From Oscillospiraceae bacterium (GTDB lineage Bacteria; Bacillota; Clostridia; Oscillospirales; Oscillospiraceae): a stretch of 64,000 nt of DNA. Positions 9,543 to 50,436 of the stretch are shown here, piece after piece. A program made the translations under genes and the position numbers. The notes below the pieces were generated by a model. It ran no database searches. It had not been told where the DNA came from and worked only from the letters and a program-made list of their open reading frames with translations. Numbering within the stretch: position 1 is the stretch's first letter; every line of letters begins with the position of its first letter. The stretch is taken from assembly GCA_017938625.1 (NCBI GenBank), contig JAGBBD010000029.1:70-64069 (forward strand), read 5' to 3'.

Positions 9543-10799
9543 TTATATCAAATACTGAGAGAGTCTGCCGTAGAGCACTTCATCGCAGATGGCTTCCACC
9601 TCAATGCCGTCGGCAGTATATTCTGTCCGCAGTACCTTAGCATCCTTGTGCAGGGTATCCACCATGCCGCCCATGGCGTAGGGCAGAAGGAATGTGCCGG
9701 TCTTCAGACCCTTGTTCAGATTTTTTTCAATCAGCTCCAGCAGCTGCGCCATATTGTCGCCTGTTCTGGCGCTGATGCCGATGCGATTTTCTCCTCTGGG
9801 AATGTCGTCCTCTTCCACAAGATCTGCCTTGTTGTAACATTCGATCACAGGAATGCCGGGTTTTGCAAGCTGAGCGATCAGCTTATCCACGACCTGTACA
9901 TGGATATCCATTTCTGGATCGGAAGCATCGATCACATGGAGCAGCAGATCCGCATACTCCAACTCCTCTAAGGTGGCTTTGAATGCCTCCACCAGATGGT
10001 GAGGCAGCTTTGCGATAAAACCGACTGTGTCAGAGAGCAATACATCCAGGGTGTCGGATACCGTCAGCTGTCTTGTGGTGGTGTCCAGCGTGTCAAACAG
10101 ACGGTTGTTGGCAGGAATCCCTGCATCTGTCAGATGGTTGAGAAGTGTGGATTTGCCTGCGTTGGTGTAACCAACGATGGCGACCACGGGAATGGAGTTC
10201 TTTAGTCTGCGCTGACGCTGGGTGGCGCGGTTTTTCCGCACCTCCTGCAGCTCGTCCTCCAATTTGGTGATGCGCTTTCGGATCAGACGACGGTCTGTTT
10301 CCAGCTGTGTTTCACCGGGACCGCGGCTGCCGATGCTGCCTTCCTGTCGTTCCAGATGGGTCCACATACCGGTCAGACGGGGCAGCAGGTATTTGTACTG
10401 CGCCAGCTCTACCTGCAGACGGCCCTCTCTCGTTTTGGCGCGCTGGGCAAAAATATCCAAAATAAGACCGCTGCGATCCATGACCATAACGCCTGTCATC
10501 TGCTCCAGAGCACGCTGCTGGGAAGGGGACAGGTCGTTGTCAAAGACCACAAGGGTCGCCTCTGTATTCTGCAGCAGTTCCTTGACCTCTTCCACCTTGC
10601 CTTCACCGATGAAGCTGTGGGGGTCGGGAGCGGGACGGGATTGGAGCACCTTTGCCACGCACTGACCGCCTGCTGTTTCCAGCAGCGCCTCCAGCTCATC
10701 CAGGGTTTCTTCCGTGGCATTTTCTTCTCTGGTGAAGATGCCTGCACTCAGACCGCACAGAACTGCTTTTTCAATTACTTTTTTCTCAAAAGGATCCAT
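9543..10799 (-). CDS. hflX: GTPase HflX (418 aa)
   Basis: G1 motif GYTNAGKST, DTVGF, NKAD, and an HflX N-terminal domain. The ATG at 10799 follows GGAGG, whereas the track start at 10820 is a TTG without an RBS. Confidence 0.92.
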   Translation of the reverse strand: MDPFEKKVIEKAVLCGLSAGIFTREENATEETLDELEALLETAGGQCVAKVLQSRPAPDPHSFIGEGKVEEVKELLQNTEATLVVFDNDLSPSQQRALEQMTGVMVMDRSGLILDIFAQRAKTREGRLQVELAQYKYLLPRLTGMWTHLERQEGSIGSRGPGETQLETDRRLIRKRITKLEDELQEVRKNRATQRQRRLKNSIPVVAIVGYTNAGKSTLLNHLTDAGIPANNRLFDTLDTTTRQLTVSDTLDVLLSDTVGFIAKLPHHLVEAFKATLEELEYADLLLHVIDASDPEMDIHVQVVDKLIAQLAKPGIPVIECYNKADLVEEDDIPRGENRIGISARTGDNMAQLLELIEKNLNKGLKTGTFLLPYAMGGMVDTLHKDAKVLRTEYTADGIEVEAICDEVLYGRLSQYLI

Positions 10800-39244: not shown

Positions 39245-40467
39245 TTTTTATGCGTTATTTTGTGCATTTTAGAGCATGACGAATAGGCCACCAGCCCGGG
39301 CCGTCTGGTAGCCTTTCCACTTTATCCCCCAATTTTTGCACAATTATATATTAAATGTGGACAACTGGCGCGGAAACACCCGCCGTTTCTGCCCATTCGG
39401 CCAGCGCTGTGTTTGCGCAGACGCCGCCTAAAATCCCTCTCGGGTAGTTGTTCATCCAGTTTTCGATTTCTTTTACCTGTTTGGCGGTCACTTCTGCCAG
39501 GTTGGTCCCCTTCGGAAGCCACCGGCGGATAAGGATGTTTGCGTTCTCGTTGCTGCCTCGCTCAAAGGCGCTGTACGGATGACAGTAATATACGTGTGTC
39601 CGCTTCTGCTTTGTCAGGCACGACCGCTCTATGCCCTCGCAGTCCGCGAACTCGCTACCGTTGTCCACAGTTATCGTGTGGAAGATGCTGCGGAACAGCC
39701 GGGACCCCAGTTTTCTTTCCAGCCGGTCCAGCGCTTTGACCGTGCTCGCCATGGTGCCATCCGGCATCTTTATGATGACCTCCCGCCGGAACTTCCGCTC
39801 CGTCAGAACTAACAGCCTGTGCAAATCTCCCTTGCAGCTCTCCACCGTGTCCATCTCCCAGTCACCGAAGAACTCCCGCTGCGCGATCTCCTGCGGGCGG
39901 TCCTCAATGCTGTCGCCCTTGGGCAGCCGGGCGGCGCGCACCTTCCGATACGCTTTGTTCTTCTTGGCCTTCCGGGGCAAGTTCTTATTTGTGATGCCCA
40001 GGAAAACGCCCTTTGTGATGTAGGAGTACAGCGTCCACTTGGAGATCGTCACGGAGAAGGTCAGCCCCTCCTCCTTGATCTTATACAGAACCGCCTCCGG
40101 GGAATACTTCTCGTTTACGATCTTGTCCTCGATGTACGCGGCCAGCGCGTAGTCGCTGCCCAGTTTCAGGGCCGGACCCTTTGCCGCGAGGTTAGCCTGG
40201 TATTTGTTCTCGGCCACATCCGGGCAATACACTTCTCTGTCGATCAGGTCCGTTGTGCGCTGGATAGCCGCGCCCCGCTTCAACTCCCGGTAGATGGTGG
40301 TGCTGTGTACGTGTAGGGCAGCCGCAATTTCCTTGGGCTTCTTTCCCTCTTTCAGCATCTTCTCAATTTTCAATCGGTCTTTCCACTTGAGATGGGAAAA
40401 GCGCCGTCCTTTTTCGCTGCTCATGGTTGGTATCCTCCTTTTGTGTGGGGATAATAACCCATAAAAA
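39245..40467 (-). mobile_element. IS30-family insertion sequence (boundaries tentative, ~1.22 kb)
   Basis: Single transposase ORF. The only terminal inverted repeat I could find is TTTTTATGCGTTATT (39245-59) against AATAACCCATAAAAA (40453-67), 14/15 complementary. No clear target duplication was seen. Confidence 0.55.
39351..40424 (-). CDS. IS30-family DDE transposase (357 aa)
   Basis: N-terminal HTH (HLKWKDRLKIEKMLKEGKKPKEIAAALHVHSTTIYRELKRG). The catalytic core has GDWEMDTV, ITVDNGSEF and the YYCHPYSAFERGSNEN region typical of IS30. Confidence 0.92.
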   Translation of the reverse strand: MSSEKGRRFSHLKWKDRLKIEKMLKEGKKPKEIAAALHVHSTTIYRELKRGAAIQRTTDLIDREVYCPDVAENKYQANLAAKGPALKLGSDYALAAYIEDKIVNEKYSPEAVLYKIKEEGLTFSVTISKWTLYSYITKGVFLGITNKNLPRKAKKNKAYRKVRAARLPKGDSIEDRPQEIAQREFFGDWEMDTVESCKGDLHRLLVLTERKFRREVIIKMPDGTMASTVKALDRLERKLGSRLFRSIFHTITVDNGSEFADCEGIERSCLTKQKRTHVYYCHPYSAFERGSNENANILIRRWLPKGTNLAEVTAKQVKEIENWMNNYPRGILGGVCANTALAEWAETAGVSAPVVHI

Positions 40468-40901: not shown

Positions 40902-41867
40902 ATGGGTCTGTTCTCTTTCTTCAAACCATCTGCAATGGGTAACGTGGGAGGCCTTGGCAGCGTACCGCATACCGCCGACCTGTTATATCCCGCTCCGCTT
41001 GTGCGTTTCGAGGAGCTTGCGGACGGCGGGCATAGCGACCCCCGTGCGCTGTATTATGCCATCCGCTACATAAGCCCGCACGGGAAGCGTCCTTTTTCTA
41101 CCGATGCCTTGAGCGGCCTTGACTTTGGCCGAAACTCTGACGCCCTTCGTCTCCTCGTCCGCCTCGGATATATACGCGAGATAAGCGCGGCCCGCTCCCT
41201 TGCGGAGCTTTACTCCAAGGATGAGCTGCAAGCCTTCCTACGTGAGCGCGGCCTGCCCGTCAAAGGGAACAAGGCCCAGCTTTCCGAAAGGCTTCATAAA
41301 AGCGGCTTCTGCCCCACAGAAAAGAAACGCCGTCGAAAACAGTATGAGCTTACCGACGCCGGGCGAGCACTGATAGAGGAGCACGACGCGGATAAAAGCG
41401 ACATCATCCTCGACGCCACCCTTGCCATAAAGCAATCGGACTACTCCGGCGCGATCTCCGCATACCGTGACTATGACAGCCGGTGGGGCTTCGTTCACAC
41501 CTCCGGGAAAAACCACACAATTTTTGCCCACTACGACGTGCCATTCAGCCGCTTCGACTTCTTGGCTCACTACTCTATGCGGGAACTGCAAAACTCCTCT
41601 GATTTCCGGGATGCACTACGGGCGTGCCTGATTGCCGGGCTTATGCGCGGCGAACAGGAAAGCGTGGAACTGGCCCACTGTTTCCGCGAAGTGTGCCACG
41701 AACAAATTGTGTGCCCGAATATCACGCACTACTTCTCCATGGATGACTTCGACTATGGCACCGCCGCCGCAATACGTGCCTCCATGGAACGAAACGCCGC
41801 AGCGGATAGCCGGTGTGTGTTGGAATACTATATTTCCCGCATTCTCTACATGAGCAGGCGGGCCTAA
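40902..41867 (+). CDS. Hypothetical protein with a SAP-like DNA-binding motif (321 aa)
   Basis: ELQAFLRERGLPVKGNKAQLSERL matches the SAP helix-extended-helix pattern. The rest is unrecognised. The RBS is GGCGG/GAAAGG. Confidence 0.6.
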   Translation: MGLFSFFKPSAMGNVGGLGSVPHTADLLYPAPLVRFEELADGGHSDPRALYYAIRYISPHGKRPFSTDALSGLDFGRNSDALRLLVRLGYIREISAARSLAELYSKDELQAFLRERGLPVKGNKAQLSERLHKSGFCPTEKKRRRKQYELTDAGRALIEEHDADKSDIILDATLAIKQSDYSGAISAYRDYDSRWGFVHTSGKNHTIFAHYDVPFSRFDFLAHYSMRELQNSSDFRDALRACLIAGLMRGEQESVELAHCFREVCHEQIVCPNITHYFSMDDFDYGTAAAIRASMERNAAADSRCVLEYYISRILYMSRRA

Positions 41868-41923: not shown

Positions 41924-42232
41924 TTAGAAATACTGTTTAATCTGGTTTGCAGCCTCTTTGAACTTATCGAAGCCGAACATGGCCGCGTAGGCCACGGCAA
42001 AGCCGACCACTACGGCAGCGGCCACATAGTACCACAGGACTGCGATGCCCATGTATGCAGCCCACGCGAAGAAAGCAACCAGCGTCAGCACCATGGCGAC
42101 GATGATTGCCAGCAGGTTCGTGGGCAGCTTGTCCCAGGTGGCCTTCTTCAACACCTGCACAATGATGTTGGTCAGCACGGTCAGCGCGCCAACAATGGCG
42201 ATCAGGGTGGAAATGATAAGCGCAATTTCCAT
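41924..42232 (-). CDS. Holin-like membrane protein (102 aa, 3 predicted TM segments)
   Basis: Three hydrophobic segments plus a charged C-terminus. Located immediately downstream of the endolysin. RBS AAGGAGAA. Confidence 0.7.
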   Translation of the reverse strand: MEIALIISTLIAIVGALTVLTNIIVQVLKKATWDKLPTNLLAIIVAMVLTLVAFFAWAAYMGIAVLWYYVAAAVVVGFAVAYAAMFGFDKFKEAANQIKQYF

Positions 42233-45351: not shown

Positions 45352-45771
45352 TTACCTCCTCACTTTGATGTGCAGCGCGTCCGCGAGCTTTTGCAGCTCC
45401 GGCACCTCCGCCGCGAAAAAGTCCTCATTGAACAGAATGACCTCCACATCCTGCCGCAGGAAATGTGCCCACTCCCGTTCCAGCAGCTCGATCTCCTGGT
45501 CGGTGAAGCGCTGCACTCTGCCGTTTTCGCCTTTGCGCACTCTCTGGCTGTACGCGATGGCCCAGGTCAGCTTGCCGCGTTCCAGACCCATCCCGTCATC
45601 ATTCCGGGCGAAATGCTTCTTGGCGTTCTCACTGGTGGCAAAGCACACAGGCTTGCCCTCCTTGGTGATGATGAACTGGCCTGCGGTTTTCAGCTCCGTC
45701 CCGTAGGGGATGTTCAGCGTCTCGCCGCAGGCGGCCAGCTCCTTAAATCTGTTATGGGTGACGTAAATCAT
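45352..45771 (-). CDS. Hypothetical protein translationally coupled to the DGR reverse transcriptase (139 aa)
   Basis: Its ATG overlaps the RT stop codon (ATGA). An alternative GTG lies 6 nt upstream. No family recognised. Confidence 0.6.
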   Translation of the reverse strand: MIYVTHNRFKELAACGETLNIPYGTELKTAGQFIITKEGKPVCFATSENAKKHFARNDDGMGLERGKLTWAIAYSQRVRKGENGRVQRFTDQEIELLEREWAHFLRQDVEVILFNEDFFAAEVPELQKLADALHIKVRR

Positions 45772-47018
45772 GCGCACATTTCCTCCTCAATGACGGCACC
45801 GTGCCGCCGGTATATCCAGCCGCACCCTGTTCGTGAGGCCTTCATCGTACACGGGAACGGCAGACGCCGTCCCGCCAGCTCCGCCGCGAACATCTGCGTA
45901 AACCGCTCGTCCAGCGCCCGGAGCGTGTCGTAGCTGTTGCACCGCTTCGCGTGTGCCCGCCACGACTGGTAGGATTGAAATACATCCTCCGGGTCCAGCC
46001 GCCCCTCGTCCATCCAGCGACGAAAAATATCCATCTTCCGCCGCATAGACCGGATGCTTTTCCGGGACAGCTTCATCACGACCTTGCCGTTCTCCATCAG
46101 CCGCACCCGCATTTTCAGGAAGGTAAAGCTGTGGTGGCGAAACGGTGTGATGATGTTTTTCTTGTCGCTCATGGCGATGCCCAGCTCCTTCGCCAGCCGG
46201 TACAGGTTCCGCCGGATGTCCTCAAGCTCCTCTAAAGAATTGCTGATAACGTATCCGTCGTCCATGTACCGCCCGTATCCATGGATGCCTCTGACATCCT
46301 TCACGTAGTGGTCGATGGGGCTTGCATAGTCCAAAGCGATGATCTGCGACACTTCACTGCCCAGGCCCACGCCTCGGGCCACGTCCTTGTCGGCTGTTTT
46401 CATTCTCCGAAAATCGTCTACAAAGTCGCAAAGCAGGTTATACAGCCGGTCATCCACGATCTTCTCCCGTGCCCGCCGCTTGATCTCGTCATGTGGCAGG
46501 CTGCCAAAATAGCCCTTGAAGTCGAATTGATAGATGCCGCCCTCGGTGCCGTACTTCCGGTAGTGGTCCCGCAGGTGCTTCCGCAGACGCCCCAGCATAA
46601 AGTCCATGCCCTTGTCTTTCAGGCTCGCCGCGTTGTCATAGATGAAGCTCCGGGAATACACGCCGGTCAGCAGATTGGCACACAAGCATTTCTGTATCGC
46701 CCGCTCCTGGATGGGCAGCGCGTCGATATTCCGCAGTTTCCCGTGCTCCACTGTGGAAAAGCTGTGAAATCCGTGGAATACTCGCGTCCCGTTATACAGG
46801 CTGTCGTAGGTTCGTTGGGTCTCGCCCAACAGGTTCGTCTCAAAATTGATCGTCGAGGTTTTCCATCTCGCACCGTTGCAGCAGGCCTTACCCGCCGCGC
46901 ACAGGTTCTTGAAAGACATGACCTCCTCGAAGCGCGCGCCACCGGCTTCCCGCGCCTTCTGCAATCTGCGCGCCTTCCGCCGTTGGTATCTGGCTTCGTG
47001 CCTTTCCTGGCTATTCAA
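45768..47018 (-). CDS. DGR-type reverse transcriptase
   Basis: Catalytic YMDD (GRYMDDGYV), the LGSEVSQ motif that fits the DGR-specific [ILV]GxxxSQ signature, and a position next to the TR. The TTG start at 47018 is 8 nt after GGAGG. An alternative ATG lies at 46919. Confidence 0.92.
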   Translation of the reverse strand: MNSQERHEARYQRRKARRLQKAREAGGARFEEVMSFKNLCAAGKACCNGARWKTSTINFETNLLGETQRTYDSLYNGTRVFHGFHSFSTVEHGKLRNIDALPIQERAIQKCLCANLLTGVYSRSFIYDNAASLKDKGMDFMLGRLRKHLRDHYRKYGTEGGIYQFDFKGYFGSLPHDEIKRRAREKIVDDRLYNLLCDFVDDFRRMKTADKDVARGVGLGSEVSQIIALDYASPIDHYVKDVRGIHGYGRYMDDGYVISNSLEELEDIRRNLYRLAKELGIAMSDKKNIITPFRHHSFTFLKMRVRLMENGKVVMKLSRKSIRSMRRKMDIFRRWMDEGRLDPEDVFQSYQSWRAHAKRCNSYDTLRALDERFTQMFAAELAGRRLPFPCTMKASRTGCGWIYRRHGAVIEEEMCA

Positions 47019-47328
47019 TCATGGTGCCTCCAATGCAGTATCCCACCCGTACAGCGTTCGGCCCGACAGGTGGTTTGCGGGCTGCATAAGTTCCCGCACC
47101 TGATCTGTCTGCCGCAACGGTTTTCTGATAGCTGCATAACGGCTGCTCATGTAACTGGGGCACTCCCGTCAAAATCCCCAGCCATGCAAGAAGCGTCCGG
47201 GCTTCCGTATCGGGTGGCTATTTTAGGAATGAAGCCCGCATACACGGGCCAGTCTCCAAGGGTCAAGTTCTCCTTTAAGGGGTGGGGCGCGGCTTCACAT
47301 TTCGTTACTTGTCTGGCCCCAGTGTGTT

Positions 47329-47456
47329 CTTAAATCCCGGCGCGAAGCCATTCGAATTGTAGGCGTTGTTGTTGTTCGCACTGCCGTCCGTGTTCACATT
47401 GCAGAAGTTGTTCGTGTTGGTCGCATTCACGGAGCGGAGCCACCAGTTGCAGGCGT
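47329..47456 (-). repeat. DGR template repeat (TR), non-coding
   Basis: 128 nt align without gaps to 48120..48247 (offset 791). It is adenine-rich on the sense strand, with runs of AAC, and starts 27 nt after the avd stop. Confidence 0.92.
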
Positions 47457-47482
47457 GGCCGTCAGAACTTGCCCTAATGAAA

Positions 47483-47950
47483 TTACTGTGTTTTGCCCTG
47501 CCGGGCCTTCTGGTATCCCGCCCAGCGGCGCTTGTCGCTGTCCAGGATGCCCCGCAGGCGGGACAGGGCCGTATTTGCCAGCGTCGTCCAGGTCTGGAAC
47601 GTCCGCTCATACTCCTCCTTGTTCTTGAAGAAGTTGTTTCCGTCGTCCACCAGCTCATAGCAAAAGGTGATCTCACCCAGTAGCGCGTCCGCGTTGGCCG
47701 CCGCGATCATCAGATATCGGCGGCGCAGATCGTACTCCTGCGCGCTCATGTCCTTGTGTACGTAGATGCCGTTCCCTTTGAGCGAGTTTGTGTAGATTTC
47801 ACCCGCCATTTCCAGCAGCTTGTTCGTCGTCACATAACGGTAGCTCGCCGGGAACTTTCGCACGATACGCACCGTGGCCTTCCGCAGCTCCCGCGCATCC
47901 GCCACAAACTGCGCTACGGCGTCCTTCCTGCGGGATTTATATACTGCCAT
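47483..47950 (-). CDS. avd: Accessory variability determinant (Avd-like four-helix-bundle protein, 155 aa)
   Basis: Helical basic protein with KFPASYRY...LEMAGEIYTNSLKGN, which resembles the four-helix-bundle/Avd family. It occupies the canonical position between the VR and TR. Confidence 0.8.
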   Translation of the reverse strand: MAVYKSRRKDAVAQFVADARELRKATVRIVRKFPASYRYVTTNKLLEMAGEIYTNSLKGNGIYVHKDMSAQEYDLRRRYLMIAAANADALLGEITFCYELVDDGNNFFKNKEEYERTFQTWTTLANTALSRLRGILDSDKRRWAGYQKARQGKTQ

Positions 47951-48062
47951 GTTGGTTTCTCCCTTCTGTCATGCAGCCCGTCGCCCGGACGGGGCCACAA
48001 AAGCGGTCCCGCCCGGGGTGGTGCTGGTTGCTGTTTTGATACCTGGTTGCAGGCGTTTCGCC

Positions 48063-48082
48063 GCAGGGACTTGCGTCCCCGC
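48063..48082 (-). other. GC-rich hairpin just downstream of the VR (candidate DGR target-recognition hairpin/cruciform)
   Basis: The sense strand reads GCGGGGAC-GCAA-GTCCCTGC, an 8-bp stem (one G-T wobble) with a GNRA-type tetraloop. It lies 28 nt after the target stop codon. Confidence 0.6.
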
Positions 48083-48110
48083 AGCTTCACTTACGATGCC
48101 GGATTTAAGA

Positions 48111-49943
48111 TTAGGCCACCTTAAAGCCCGGCGCGAAGCCAGCCGAATGGTAGGCGCTGCGGTAGCTCGCACCGCCGTCCGTGCTCACACGGCAGAAGTA
48201 GTCCGTGCCGGTCGCACGCACGGAGCGGAGCCACCAGTAGCAGGCGGTCGTAGTCGCGTTGTGCTTATACTTGACCTTGCTGTTACCGTTCTTGTAGTAA
48301 TCATACTGCTTCTGGTAATTCTGCTCGGCACTGTTGGCGTAGCTTCTGGTGCCCTGTACCTCGAACTCGGACAGCAGCCAAATCTTGTCGGATGTGGTGG
48401 TCACGTAGCTGGCGGTGTTGGAGCCGCCGCCGGTGTTGTCGCTGTACTTGGTGCAGGCCGCGATCACGTTCTGCCATGCGGTAGGCATAGCAGCCAGGAA
48501 GGCGGGGCAGATGGTCTTGCGCATATAGCTGCCGTTCCAGCCGCCGGAGTTGCTGTTGCTGGTGTTCATACGGAAGCCTGCGGAGCTGCCAGTGTTGCCG
48601 TAGTTGCCGTCCACGAAAGCGATGTCCACGCCCGCGCTGGTCTTGCCGAACTGGAAGTGGATGCTGTTGCCGCCCTCCACGCTGCTGTTGTGGTTAAAGC
48701 CCAGGATGAAGGCGTAGTAGGTGCCGCTCAAAGACAGCGCGCCCACGGTGCCGGACAGGGCAATTCCCATCTTGTCGCCCACAGACCAGTAGTTTGCCGC
48801 CTGGCCGGACTGTGCTGCCGCCTGAATGGTGGCAGGAGTGTTGTCCGCAAGGGACGAGCTGGGCACGCTGACACTGACAGCGATGGTCTTGTTTGCGGGC
48901 GCGGTGTGGTTGGTGCCAGCCGCCACCTTCACGGTGATGGTGGCGTCACCGGCGGCCAGGCCAGTGATGACCACGTTGTTGCCGCTCACTTCCGCCTTTG
49001 CCACACTGGTGTTGCTGGACGTTGCGCTGATCGCGCCGTCGCCCGCGCGGGTTACCGCCACGGTCTCCGACAGAGTGGAGATGTCCAGGCTCACACTGGT
49101 CTTGCCCAGGGTCAGACTACCGGCGGCCTTGCCGATGGACCAGCTCACAGTCTTGGCCGTGGTGGTGCCGTCGTTCCACTGATAGTTCGCCTTGGGGGTA
49201 AAGGTGGCGTTGTAGCTACCGGCATTGGTGCCGGAGGTAGTTCCGCCGATGGTCAGCTTATTGCTGTCATAGTTGCTCCACTGGGGAGACTGGGCGCTGC
49301 CGGAATAGGTCAGGCTCCCGCTCTGCGCAGGGGTAGCCAGACTGGCCTTGCCGATGGTCCAGGTCACGCTCTTGGCCGTGGTGGTGCCGTCGGCCCACTC
49401 ATAGCCACTCTTGGGTGTGAAGGTGGCGGTATAGCTACCGGCATTGGTGCCGGAGGTAGTTCCGCCGATGGTCAGTCGCTCCTCGTCATAGCCGTTCCAC
49501 TGGGGAGACTGGGCGCTGCCCGTGTACGTCAGGCTCCCGCTCTGCGTGGGCACACTGTTGATGACGCTGTTGATCTTGGTAATGGCGTCCAAAGCGTCGT
49601 TGGCCGCCTGCTGGGCGTTCTGTGCTGCCGTGGCCGCGTCCTCCGCTGCCTGCTTGGCGGCGGCTGCGTTTTCCTCTGCGGCAGTGGCCGCGTCGGTGGC
49701 AGTCTTAACAGAGCCTTCCAGGCTGTTCGCCTTTTCCAGGGCCTCGTTGGCCTTGCCGTTGGCGTCGCCTGCGGTGCTCTCGGCATCAGCGGCCTTCTGC
49801 ATCGCTGCGTTTGCCGTGTTGCCTGCGCTGTTTGCAGCGTTCAGAGCGGCGTCCGCCTGCTCTTTGGCCTGCTGCGCCACCTGTCTTGCGATGGTAGCGT
49901 CTACCCCAGCAGCGCCAGGGGTATTAACTTGTCCTAAAGCCAT
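48111..49943 (-). CDS. DGR target: tail-fibre/receptor-binding-like protein with a C-terminal variable C-type-lectin-like domain (610 aa)
   Basis: Ala/Gln-rich coiled-coil N-terminus, two 73-aa tandem repeats, an Ig-like (Big_2-like) segment, and a C-terminal domain ending in YWWLRS...FAPGFKVA that contains the VR. Confidence 0.85.
   Translation of the reverse strand: MALGQVNTPGAAGVDATIARQVAQQAKEQADAALNAANSAGNTANAAMQKAADAESTAGDANGKANEALEKANSLEGSVKTATDAATAAEENAAAAKQAAEDAATAAQNAQQAANDALDAITKINSVINSVPTQSGSLTYTGSAQSPQWNGYDEERLTIGGTTSGTNAGSYTATFTPKSGYEWADGTTTAKSVTWTIGKASLATPAQSGSLTYSGSAQSPQWSNYDSNKLTIGGTTSGTNAGSYNATFTPKANYQWNDGTTTAKTVSWSIGKAAGSLTLGKTSVSLDISTLSETVAVTRAGDGAISATSSNTSVAKAEVSGNNVVITGLAAGDATITVKVAAGTNHTAPANKTIAVSVSVPSSSLADNTPATIQAAAQSGQAANYWSVGDKMGIALSGTVGALSLSGTYYAFILGFNHNSSVEGGNSIHFQFGKTSAGVDIAFVDGNYGNTGSSAGFRMNTSNSNSGGWNGSYMRKTICPAFLAAMPTAWQNVIAACTKYSDNTGGGSNTASYVTTTSDKIWLLSEFEVQGTRSYANSAEQNYQKQYDYYKNGNSKVKYKHNATTTACYWWLRSVRATGTDYFCRVSTDGGASYRSAYHSAGFAPGFKVA
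48120..48247 (-). repeat. DGR variable repeat (VR) at the 3' end of the target gene
   Basis: Differs from the TR at 21 of 128 positions, every one an A in the sense-strand TR. The invariant GC-rich 3' segment GGCTTCGCGCCGGG is shared (IMH-like). Confidence 0.92.
49113..49550 (-). repeat. In-frame 219-bp tandem duplication inside the DGR target gene
   Basis: P(T/A)QSGSLTY(T/S)GSAQSPQW...TIGGTTSGTNAGSY.ATFTPK...DGTTTAK.V.W.IGKA occurs twice (aa 132-204 and 205-277). Confidence 0.85.
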
Positions 49944-50368: not shown

Positions 50369-50400
50369 ACAAAAGGGGGCGGGGTGGTGGCCCCGCCCCC
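50369..50400 (-). terminator. Strong intrinsic terminator inside the tail-fibre region
   Basis: The minus strand reads GGGGGCGGGG-CCACCA-CCCCGCCCCC followed by TTTT. Confidence 0.8.
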
Positions 50401-50436
50401 TCTGTTACTGCTTAATCGCTGATGTGTGGGAGGAAA

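Follow-up and report, generated by a model that had tools for sequence, protein, structure and literature searches.

A stretch of 64,000 nucleotides from the genome of an Oscillospiraceae bacterium (GenBank assembly GCA_017938625.1, contig JAGBBD010000029.1, positions 70 to 64,069; hereafter "the window") carries on its minus strand a cassette in which a target gene ending in a variable repeat (VR), an Avd-like gene, a non-coding template repeat (TR), a structured spacer RNA, and the gene for a reverse transcriptase (RT) follow one another, with a further open reading frame (ORF) of 141 codons behind them (Table 1). All the parts of a diversity-generating retroelement (DGR) are present and intact, and the cassette as a whole is very probably a complete DGR of the FP_Taranis/Roos type, situated at the junction of the tail-fibre and lysis genes of a prophage with a P2-like baseplate in a gut Oscillospiraceae host. 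DGRs of gut Bacillota phages with DUF6273-containing targets have been published, and thousands of DGRs have been catalogued. This type of DGR is itself already published for the Faecalibacterium phages Taranis, Roos, and Pioen (PMC5883640; PMC11792537); as a DGR, the cassette adds nothing new in kind, and its identification is a good annotation, not a discovery. A sequence-only reading of the window, made with no database searches, had called the cassette a DGR with the mtd-avd-TR-brt layout found in Bordetella phage BPP-1. Every element that it listed lies on the minus strand at the coordinates given here, and the order is that of the annotated mtd(VR)-avd-TR-brt locus of BPP-1; the adenine-only mismatches, the affinity of the RT to DGR RTs, and the retention of its catalytic residues, described below, agree with the call.

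Repeat pair and reverse transcriptase

The TR and the VR align over 128 nt without a gap at 84% identity, and all of their 21 mismatches fall at TR adenines, which account for 36 of the 128 nt (hypergeometric P 9e-15). The homology between the two copies breaks off sharply at both ends. The realignment thereby yields what had been predicted from the letters of the sequence, namely a 128-nt non-coding template repeat, a 610-aa gene that terminates in a variable repeat, and mismatches confined to adenines. Read in the frame of the VR, the TR corresponds to ACNWWLRSVNATNTNNFCNVNTDGSANNNNAYNSNGFAPGFK, with 13 AAY codons; 19 codons of the VR are mutable (these 13 included), which gives ~8e18 protein variants, and no stop codon is reachable. 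In ten related loci, the repeats differ at 14–22 positions each, with no more than one non-adenine mismatch per locus. A second VR in the window was considered and rejected, as a scan for copies across its 64 kb found neither a further TR-like copy nor a second VR.

The 3′ end of the VR behaves differently from the remainder of the repeat. Across 11 elements, the VRs do not vary 3′ of repeat position 106, and position 122 is an A in every TR and a C in all 11 VRs compared. By analogy with BPP-1, this VR segment and its TR counterpart would represent a pair of initiation of mutagenic homing sites (IMH and IMH*), and they behave as expected for such a pair. Farther downstream, there is a GC-rich GNRA hairpin. 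Of 13 related loci examined, 12 have it at the same offset, the loop being GAAA or GCAA and the stem showing compensatory changes; the exception (L026) has a different fold at this site. Because the hairpin of the window, taken alone, is not more stable than shuffled sequences (z = -1.7), its support lies in this conservation, and it is a candidate target-recognition hairpin or cruciform.

The RT matches Pfam RVT_1 and phrog_1423 (242 bits). Its top match in the PDB, along the full length, is bRT of BPP-1 (8ub7, E 7.6e-10), the sole other match there being a group II RT (E 8e-4), and a tblastn search returned matches that include DGR phages of Bordetella, Bacteroides, and Faecalibacterium. The two motifs on which the RT had been recognised from sequence, YMDD and an LGSEVSQ that fits the DGR signature [ILV]GxxxSQ, are found at residues 251 and 219, respectively, and LGSEVSQ aligns with IGSLTSQ of bRT. 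More broadly, F87, R96, I98, D166, L219, G220, Q225, D253, and D254 align to F66, R74, I76, D138, I181, G182, Q187, D215, and D216 of bRT, which the cryo-EM paper on BPP-1 describes as the catalytic aspartates and as contacts to the template and the incoming nucleotide; both the catalytic residues and those for adenine mutagenesis are therefore kept. The gene likely starts at a TTG codon preceded by a GGAGG ribosome-binding site, and the TTG start is kept in 5 relatives.

The protein also attracts generic RT-domain matches, to a group II model (59.6 bits) and to the Drt3a, retron, and UG17/UG26 models. These might be taken to mean that it is a retron, group II intron, or Abi/DRT defence RT and that the two repeats arose by ordinary duplication of part of a gene. 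This explanation is exceedingly improbable. The curated cut-offs are far from reached (group II, 59.6 vs. 300 bits; Drt3a, 38.7 vs. 200; retron, 26 vs. 235), and the defence RT models of PADLOC score at most 53 bits, against 242 bits for phrog_1423. A mismatch pattern restricted to adenines at the above P value speaks against this explanation, as does the alignment of the DGR-specific LGSEVSQ motif to that of bRT. No group II intron or retron RNA family is matched either, the RT-2 RNA described below being the only significant RNA match. On the basis of the model scores, the adenine-only mismatches, the best match to bRT, and the RT-2 RNA, the retron, group II, and defence-RT identities were rejected; by matches and family models, the protein is nearest to DGR RTs.

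Table 1. Features of the DGR cassette, in window coordinates
Feature	Position	Strand	Remarks
DGR cassette	45352–49943	minus	order: target(VR) - Avd-like gene - TR - RT-2 spacer - RT - 141-aa ORF
DGR target gene	48111..49943	minus	ORF 49943..48111, 610 aa; C-terminal DUF6273 carrying the VR
Variable repeat (VR)	48120..48247	minus	the 42 complete codons that precede the terminal Val-Ala-stop; 3′ end 6 nt short of the target stop codon
IMH-like invariant 3′ end of the VR	48120..48141	minus	TGGCTTCGCGCCGGGCTTTAAG; one difference (C in VR, A in TR) from the TR counterpart 47329–47350
GC-rich GNRA hairpin	48060..48085	minus	GCTGCGGGGAC-GCAA-GTCCCTGCGGC; 35 nt downstream of the VR
Avd-like accessory protein	47483..47950	minus	ORF 47950..47483, 155 aa, pI 9.8; assigned by AlphaFold2 fold and position
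Predicted long-range helix, 5′ strand	47464..47475	minus	AGGGCAAGUUCU; between the avd stop and the TR
Template repeat (TR)	47329..47456	minus	non-coding; between the avd stop and the RT, begins 26 nt past the avd stop
Structured spacer RNA, Rfam RF03077 (RT-2 RNA)	47073..47322	minus	begins 7 nt after the TR, stops 54 nt before the RT start
Predicted long-range helix, 3′ strand	47259..47271	minus	AGAACUUGACCCU; inside the conserved "AAAGGAGA" stretch of RT-2
DGR RT	45768..47018	minus	ORF 47018..45768, 416 aa; likely TTG start, GGAGG ribosome-binding site 8 nt upstream
141-aa ORF after the RT	45352..45777	minus	overlaps the RT stop codon by 10 nt; phrog_29409 E 3e-14

Spacer RNA, Avd-like protein, and proposed mechanism

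The spacer that separates the TR from the RT had been regarded as unusually long in the sequence-only reading. Its length is ordinary, being 310 nt here and 310–437 nt in 12 relatives, and it is the Rfam RT-2 RNA (RF03077), which cmscan matches in full (model positions 1–222 of 222) at 77.9 bits (gathering score 40; E 5e-17), immediately upstream of the RT gene. Of 13 related loci scanned, 12 have RT-2 in the equivalent position, among them FP_Taranis (175 bits), and it is present in all twelve with a close RT homolog. Weinberg et al. (2017) identified the RT-10 motif in the TR-RT spacer of BPP-1 and merely speculated that other RT motifs serve DGRs (PMC5737381); the cassette provides a clean and fully parsed case that ties RT-2 to the TR-RT spacer of a verified DGR.

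A consensus fold was calculated with RNAalifold for 13 loci, from the end of avd through the TR and the spacer to the start of the RT. It predicts a 12-bp long-range helix that brackets the TR. The 3′ strand of this helix falls in the conserved "AAAGGAGA" stretch, which is unpaired in the Rfam consensus, and the partner segment upstream of the TR is located outside the Rfam model. Pairing is possible in 95.5% of the cells of the alignment, compared with 28–58% when the partners are slid by 1–3 columns; 8 of the 12 pairs have changed on both sides, and none of 500 shuffles reaches the observed score. In addition, a GAAA-capped stem-loop, part of the RT-2 spacer, comes directly after the TR. Handa et al. 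have described, for BPP-1 and 207 other DGRs, a "cPRT Stop" duplex in which a sequence upstream of the TR pairs with one downstream of it, together with a tetraloop-capped stem-loop after the TR (bioRxiv 10.1101/2023.10.23.563531). The helix predicted in the window matches this duplex, and its stem-loop after the TR fits too. The covarying pairing of a stretch that was considered unpaired in RT-2 with a segment upstream of the TR would extend the RNA mechanism of BPP-1 to this clade.

Nearly every related locus has the gene of the 155-aa protein placed between its VR and its TR. AlphaFold2 (AF2), supplied with an alignment of 39 sequences, folds it into a four-helix bundle (predicted local distance difference test score, pLDDT, 90.7), and the closest PDB folds are 2gsc and 2rld (template modelling score 0.79–0.84, normalised to target), which we take to be pentameric 23S-IVS/S23 proteins and relatives of bAvd. 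In BFVD, a library of viral structures, the matches at ranks 2, 3, 5, 8, 15, and 24 are labelled "Avd-like" or "bAvd-like," and the isoelectric point (pI) of 9.8 compares with 9.55 for bAvd. The Avd-like four-helix bundle proposed from the sequence alone is thus borne out at the level of the fold, by the AF2 model and the structural matches in both the PDB and BFVD, and no sequence model recognises it: the threshold of the bAvd-like family of Pfam (PF22296) is not reached, with no match in the window and sub-threshold matches (E 0.01 or worse) in 11 of the 39 homologs. The modelled structure supports the identification of the 155-aa protein as a small basic four-helix bundle of Avd-like fold. 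Cornuault et al. reported in 2018 that no Avd homolog was detectable in Taranis (PMC5883640), in which gp70, encoded at the same position, is 31% identical to the 155-aa protein. The modelling of the small Taranis-type protein as an Avd-like bundle suggests that these DGRs do have an Avd, in diverged form, and that DGR finders based on hidden Markov models will under-call Avd in the clade.

The resemblance to FP_Taranis, Roos, and Pioen extends over the whole region, which in all of them comprises baseplate J, gpI, a tail fibre, two small ORFs, a DUF6273 target with a C-terminal VR, a small four-helix protein, the TR, RT-2, the RT, small ORFs, holin, and endolysin. In FP_Taranis, with the same order as in the window, gp68 is already annotated as a "DGR target." The targets of the three phages are 53–54% identical to that of the window over residues 128–609, whereas the N-terminal 127 aa of the latter are unrelated. 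By contrast, the RT of the window is just 32% identical to theirs, the window lacks the Arc-like gene that separates the VR from avd in that type, and the host belongs to the Oscillospiraceae (Oscillibacter- or Flintibacter-type metagenome-assembled genomes, MAGs) and not to Faecalibacterium. Relatives closer than the Taranis type, with RT identities of 88–99%, are represented only by unannotated IMG/VR, MAG, and ENA contigs, and a megablast of the cassette against GenBank phages gave just short matches of 75–78% identity.

With BPP-1, the cassette shares gene order and strand, an RT that aligns over its full length with retained catalytic and adenine-mutagenesis residues, a basic four-helix accessory protein, an invariant VR 3′ end that is marked by a difference from the TR, and a hairpin after the VR. 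The differences are as follows. The identity between the RTs is 26%; the spacer of BPP-1 is 140–144 nt long and contains RT-10 (PMC5737381), as opposed to 310 nt and RT-2; no sequence similarity can be detected between the Avd-like protein and bAvd; by sequence, the target domain falls into DUF6273 and not into the Mtd fold family; and BPP-1 has a podovirus tail, whereas the genes of the window specify a baseplate of the contractile-tail type.

By analogy with BPP-1, a feasible model may be as follows. A transcript would run from the end of avd across the TR and the RT-2 spacer; the 12-bp long-range helix would make a closed loop of the TR, and the RT-2 structure would dock on a complex of the RT and the Avd-like protein. 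The RT would then prime in cis from the spacer, copy the TR, and misincorporate opposite adenines, and the resulting cDNA would replace the VR, guided by the invariant GC-rich VR 3′ end and by the GNRA hairpin downstream of it. Up to 19 codons (~1e19 variants) would thereby be recoded on the C-terminal, ligand-binding DUF6273 domain of a fibre-associated protein. Cis-priming and the roles given to the individual RNA elements are extrapolated from BPP-1.

Target protein and activity of the element

The target protein consists, from the N- to the C-terminus, of an Ala-rich coiled coil, two repeats of ~73 aa, a PHROG-matching region that includes residues 274–378, and DUF6273 (residues 460–608; Pfam E 1.4e-16). 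Along its whole length it matches phrog_37900 (E 1e-195), and parts of it match the PHROG families "tail protein" (residues 209–303) and "Hoc-like head decoration" (residues 461–608, corresponding to the DUF6273 domain). The PHROG-matching region has an Ig-like appearance by eye, and no Pfam Ig model matches it. The DUF6273 targets nd4_tgt2 and nd12_tgt2 (PMC10743442) are single-domain proteins of 234–294 aa, in comparison with which the target of the window has ~380 extra N-terminal residues that form the coiled coil, the two tandem repeats, and the further region. The two repeats (SGSLTY.GSAQSPQW...TW.IGKA) correspond to a tandem duplication in the target gene with a 219-nt period and 88–89% identity (window 49125–49546). 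At this duplication, runs of N interrupt a near-identical ENA gut metagenome scaffold (L092), probably owing to assembly collapse.

The AF2 model of the last 229 aa of the target (window 48111–48800) has a pLDDT of 95.6, and its single strong match in the PDB is 9qa6, the IgA peptidase of Thomasclavelia ramosa, the N-terminal domain of which is DUF6273 (PMC12402451). This match raises the question of what the diversified protein binds. It may be an environmental adhesin for mucus, glycans, or host immunoglobulin, which keeps virions in the gut niche, and not a binder of a host receptor; the matches to the "tail protein" and "Hoc-like head decoration" families and the two tandem repeats, suggestive of a flexible stalk, would suit such a role, and the same alternative has been raised by the authors of PMC10743442 for other DGR targets. 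We nevertheless consider an adhesin unlikely. The gpJ, gpI, and tail-collar fibre genes and a pair of small fibre-module ORFs immediately precede the target gene, the analogous protein of BPP-1 is a receptor binder, and what the IgA peptidase's N-terminal domain does is not established in the available text of PMC12402451. The most economical reading of this position and domain type is a receptor binder at the fibre tip, in which case recoding of the VR most likely changes what the virion binds. A hypervariable domain at the putative fibre tip is thereby marked in an Oscillospiraceae prophage, which is useful for work on host range.

In IMG/VR, 79 loci with a related RT were found, with RT identities of 28–99%. 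The TR is one and the same in nine of these contigs (97% identity to that of the window), yet each of the nine has a different VR; of the 35 columns that vary among the VRs, 32 correspond to TR adenines. The mean identity among these contigs is 98% over the 400 nt upstream of the VR and 80% within the VR; the ungapped identity of the 400 nt downstream of the VR was unreliable because of indels and was not used. Since one TR accompanies nine VRs that vary at TR adenines, this DGR lineage is active in nature. Variation of the VR among reads has been shown experimentally for Roos and Pioen (PMC11792537), the targets of which are among those compared above. In a Logan contig (L094), the VR differs from the TR of the window at 19 positions, all 19 of them adenines. 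The exact element of the window is rare in the JGI metagenomes and IMG/VR, since a VR query with N at the TR-adenine positions and an exact 50-nt segment of the TR each gave 0 matches in these collections.

Several results weigh against the interpretation of the cassette as a complete and working DGR. The 155-aa protein has no above-threshold match in Pfam, in NCBIfam, or in phmmer and profile searches of the PDB, and its hhalign comparison with bAvd is null (probability 0.3%). With C-type lectins, the target domain yields weak Foldseek matches (probability at most 0.2), and for this reason the assignment of DUF6273 to the C-lectin fold rests on PMC10743442, which describes a fold of this kind in other DGR targets with DUF6273. 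A scan of the cassette brought up no promoter-like site, and L092, the sole near-identical copy (99.98% over 4.3 kb), has the same VR. The last two results, together with several DGRs of Faecalibacterium phages that showed no read variation when sequenced (PMC11792537), are what would be expected if the cassette were complete but now silent, or a fossil, with a VR that was written in the past and has since been fixed. This is a less likely explanation, although one to be taken somewhat more seriously than the adhesin. The TR and VR have no non-adenine mismatch and therefore have not drifted after the most recent homing; neither the RT nor the Avd-like protein nor the RNA motif is disrupted; and sister elements are clearly diversifying. 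From the intactness of the cassette and the absence of non-adenine drift, we infer that the copy in the window is active.

Other contigs carry parts of the element in different surroundings. In L093 (1059–1958) and L094 (547–1440), DUF6273 domains that are 87–91% identical to that of the window occur in proteins of ~300 aa without the 380-aa N-terminal stalk, and the contigs run on into XkdX, holin, and endolysin genes with no adjacent avd, TR, or RT. Either the DGR is located elsewhere in those phages, or the binding domain has been exchanged between phage backbones. The proteins P0121 and P0123, whose target domains are the closest after that of the identical P0120, were considered as VR variants of the same element and rejected, as they are ~300-aa proteins on contigs without an adjacent avd, TR, or RT.

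In ~25 protein clusters (within P0070–P0108) from many ENA samples, the N-terminus of a host DUF3842 protein (PF12953) is fused to a C-terminal portion of the Avd-like protein (69 aa, 84% identity). On one scaffold (L095, 3001–4272; YEOH20-1_SAMN13509553 scaffold_6034), such a chimera is preceded by the chromosomal genes MatE, Exo_endo_phos, Sm_multidrug_ex, and Peptidase_M20 and followed by a TR, RT-2, and the start of an RT. This arrangement is an "orphan" half-avd/TR/RT unit attached to host DNA and lacking a target upstream, perhaps a fixed prophage remnant or a rearrangement. In a related phage contig from IMG/VR (L031), Rfam RF02276 identifies a hammerhead ribozyme of type II at 10393–10461 (49.7 bits; gathering score 37), which is ~4 kb downstream of the RT.

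Genomic surroundings of the cassette

One flank of the cassette has genes for a tape-measure protein, gpU, baseplate J, a P2 gpI-like protein, and the N-terminal domain of a tail-collar fibre, together with two small ORFs of the fibre module; the opposite flank has a small holin-like ORF and a lysozyme/LysM endolysin. This is in line with the earlier placement of the cassette between gpH/gpI-like fibre genes and a lysis cassette. The genome matches MAGs of Oscillospiraceae (Oscillibacter and Flintibacter muris).

The additional ORFs of the cassette had been counted among its unusual features. The 141-aa ORF that follows the RT proved to be a syntenic phage gene, with a homolog that is likewise encoded downstream of the RT in FP_Taranis (gp73, 36% identity), and its sequence matches no Pfam, PDB, or PADLOC entry. 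It lies directly 3′ of the RT in every related locus with an RT identity of at least 62%, and ~1.1 kb away or absent in more distant loci. One might speculate that it encodes an unrecognised accessory factor of the DGR, translationally coupled to the RT, and not a passenger phage gene. We hold this to be quite improbable; the whole region is syntenic among these phages, and the linkage is therefore not specific evidence of a role in the DGR. On sequence grounds, the ORF is best described as a conserved phage gene.

A strong terminator-like hairpin on the minus strand (window 50372–50403), with a 13-bp stem containing 10 GC pairs and a T-rich tail, is located between a 340-aa fibre-module gene and a 141-aa ORF that precedes the DGR target. 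Beyond the endolysin, the window encodes an IS30-like transposase (HTH_38 and a weak rve match, 39351–40424) and a SAP-domain protein (40902–41867), and the GC content is 53% over positions 1–39000 and 60.6% over positions 42000–64000. These genes and the shift in GC content place the left boundary of the prophage probably at ~42 kb.

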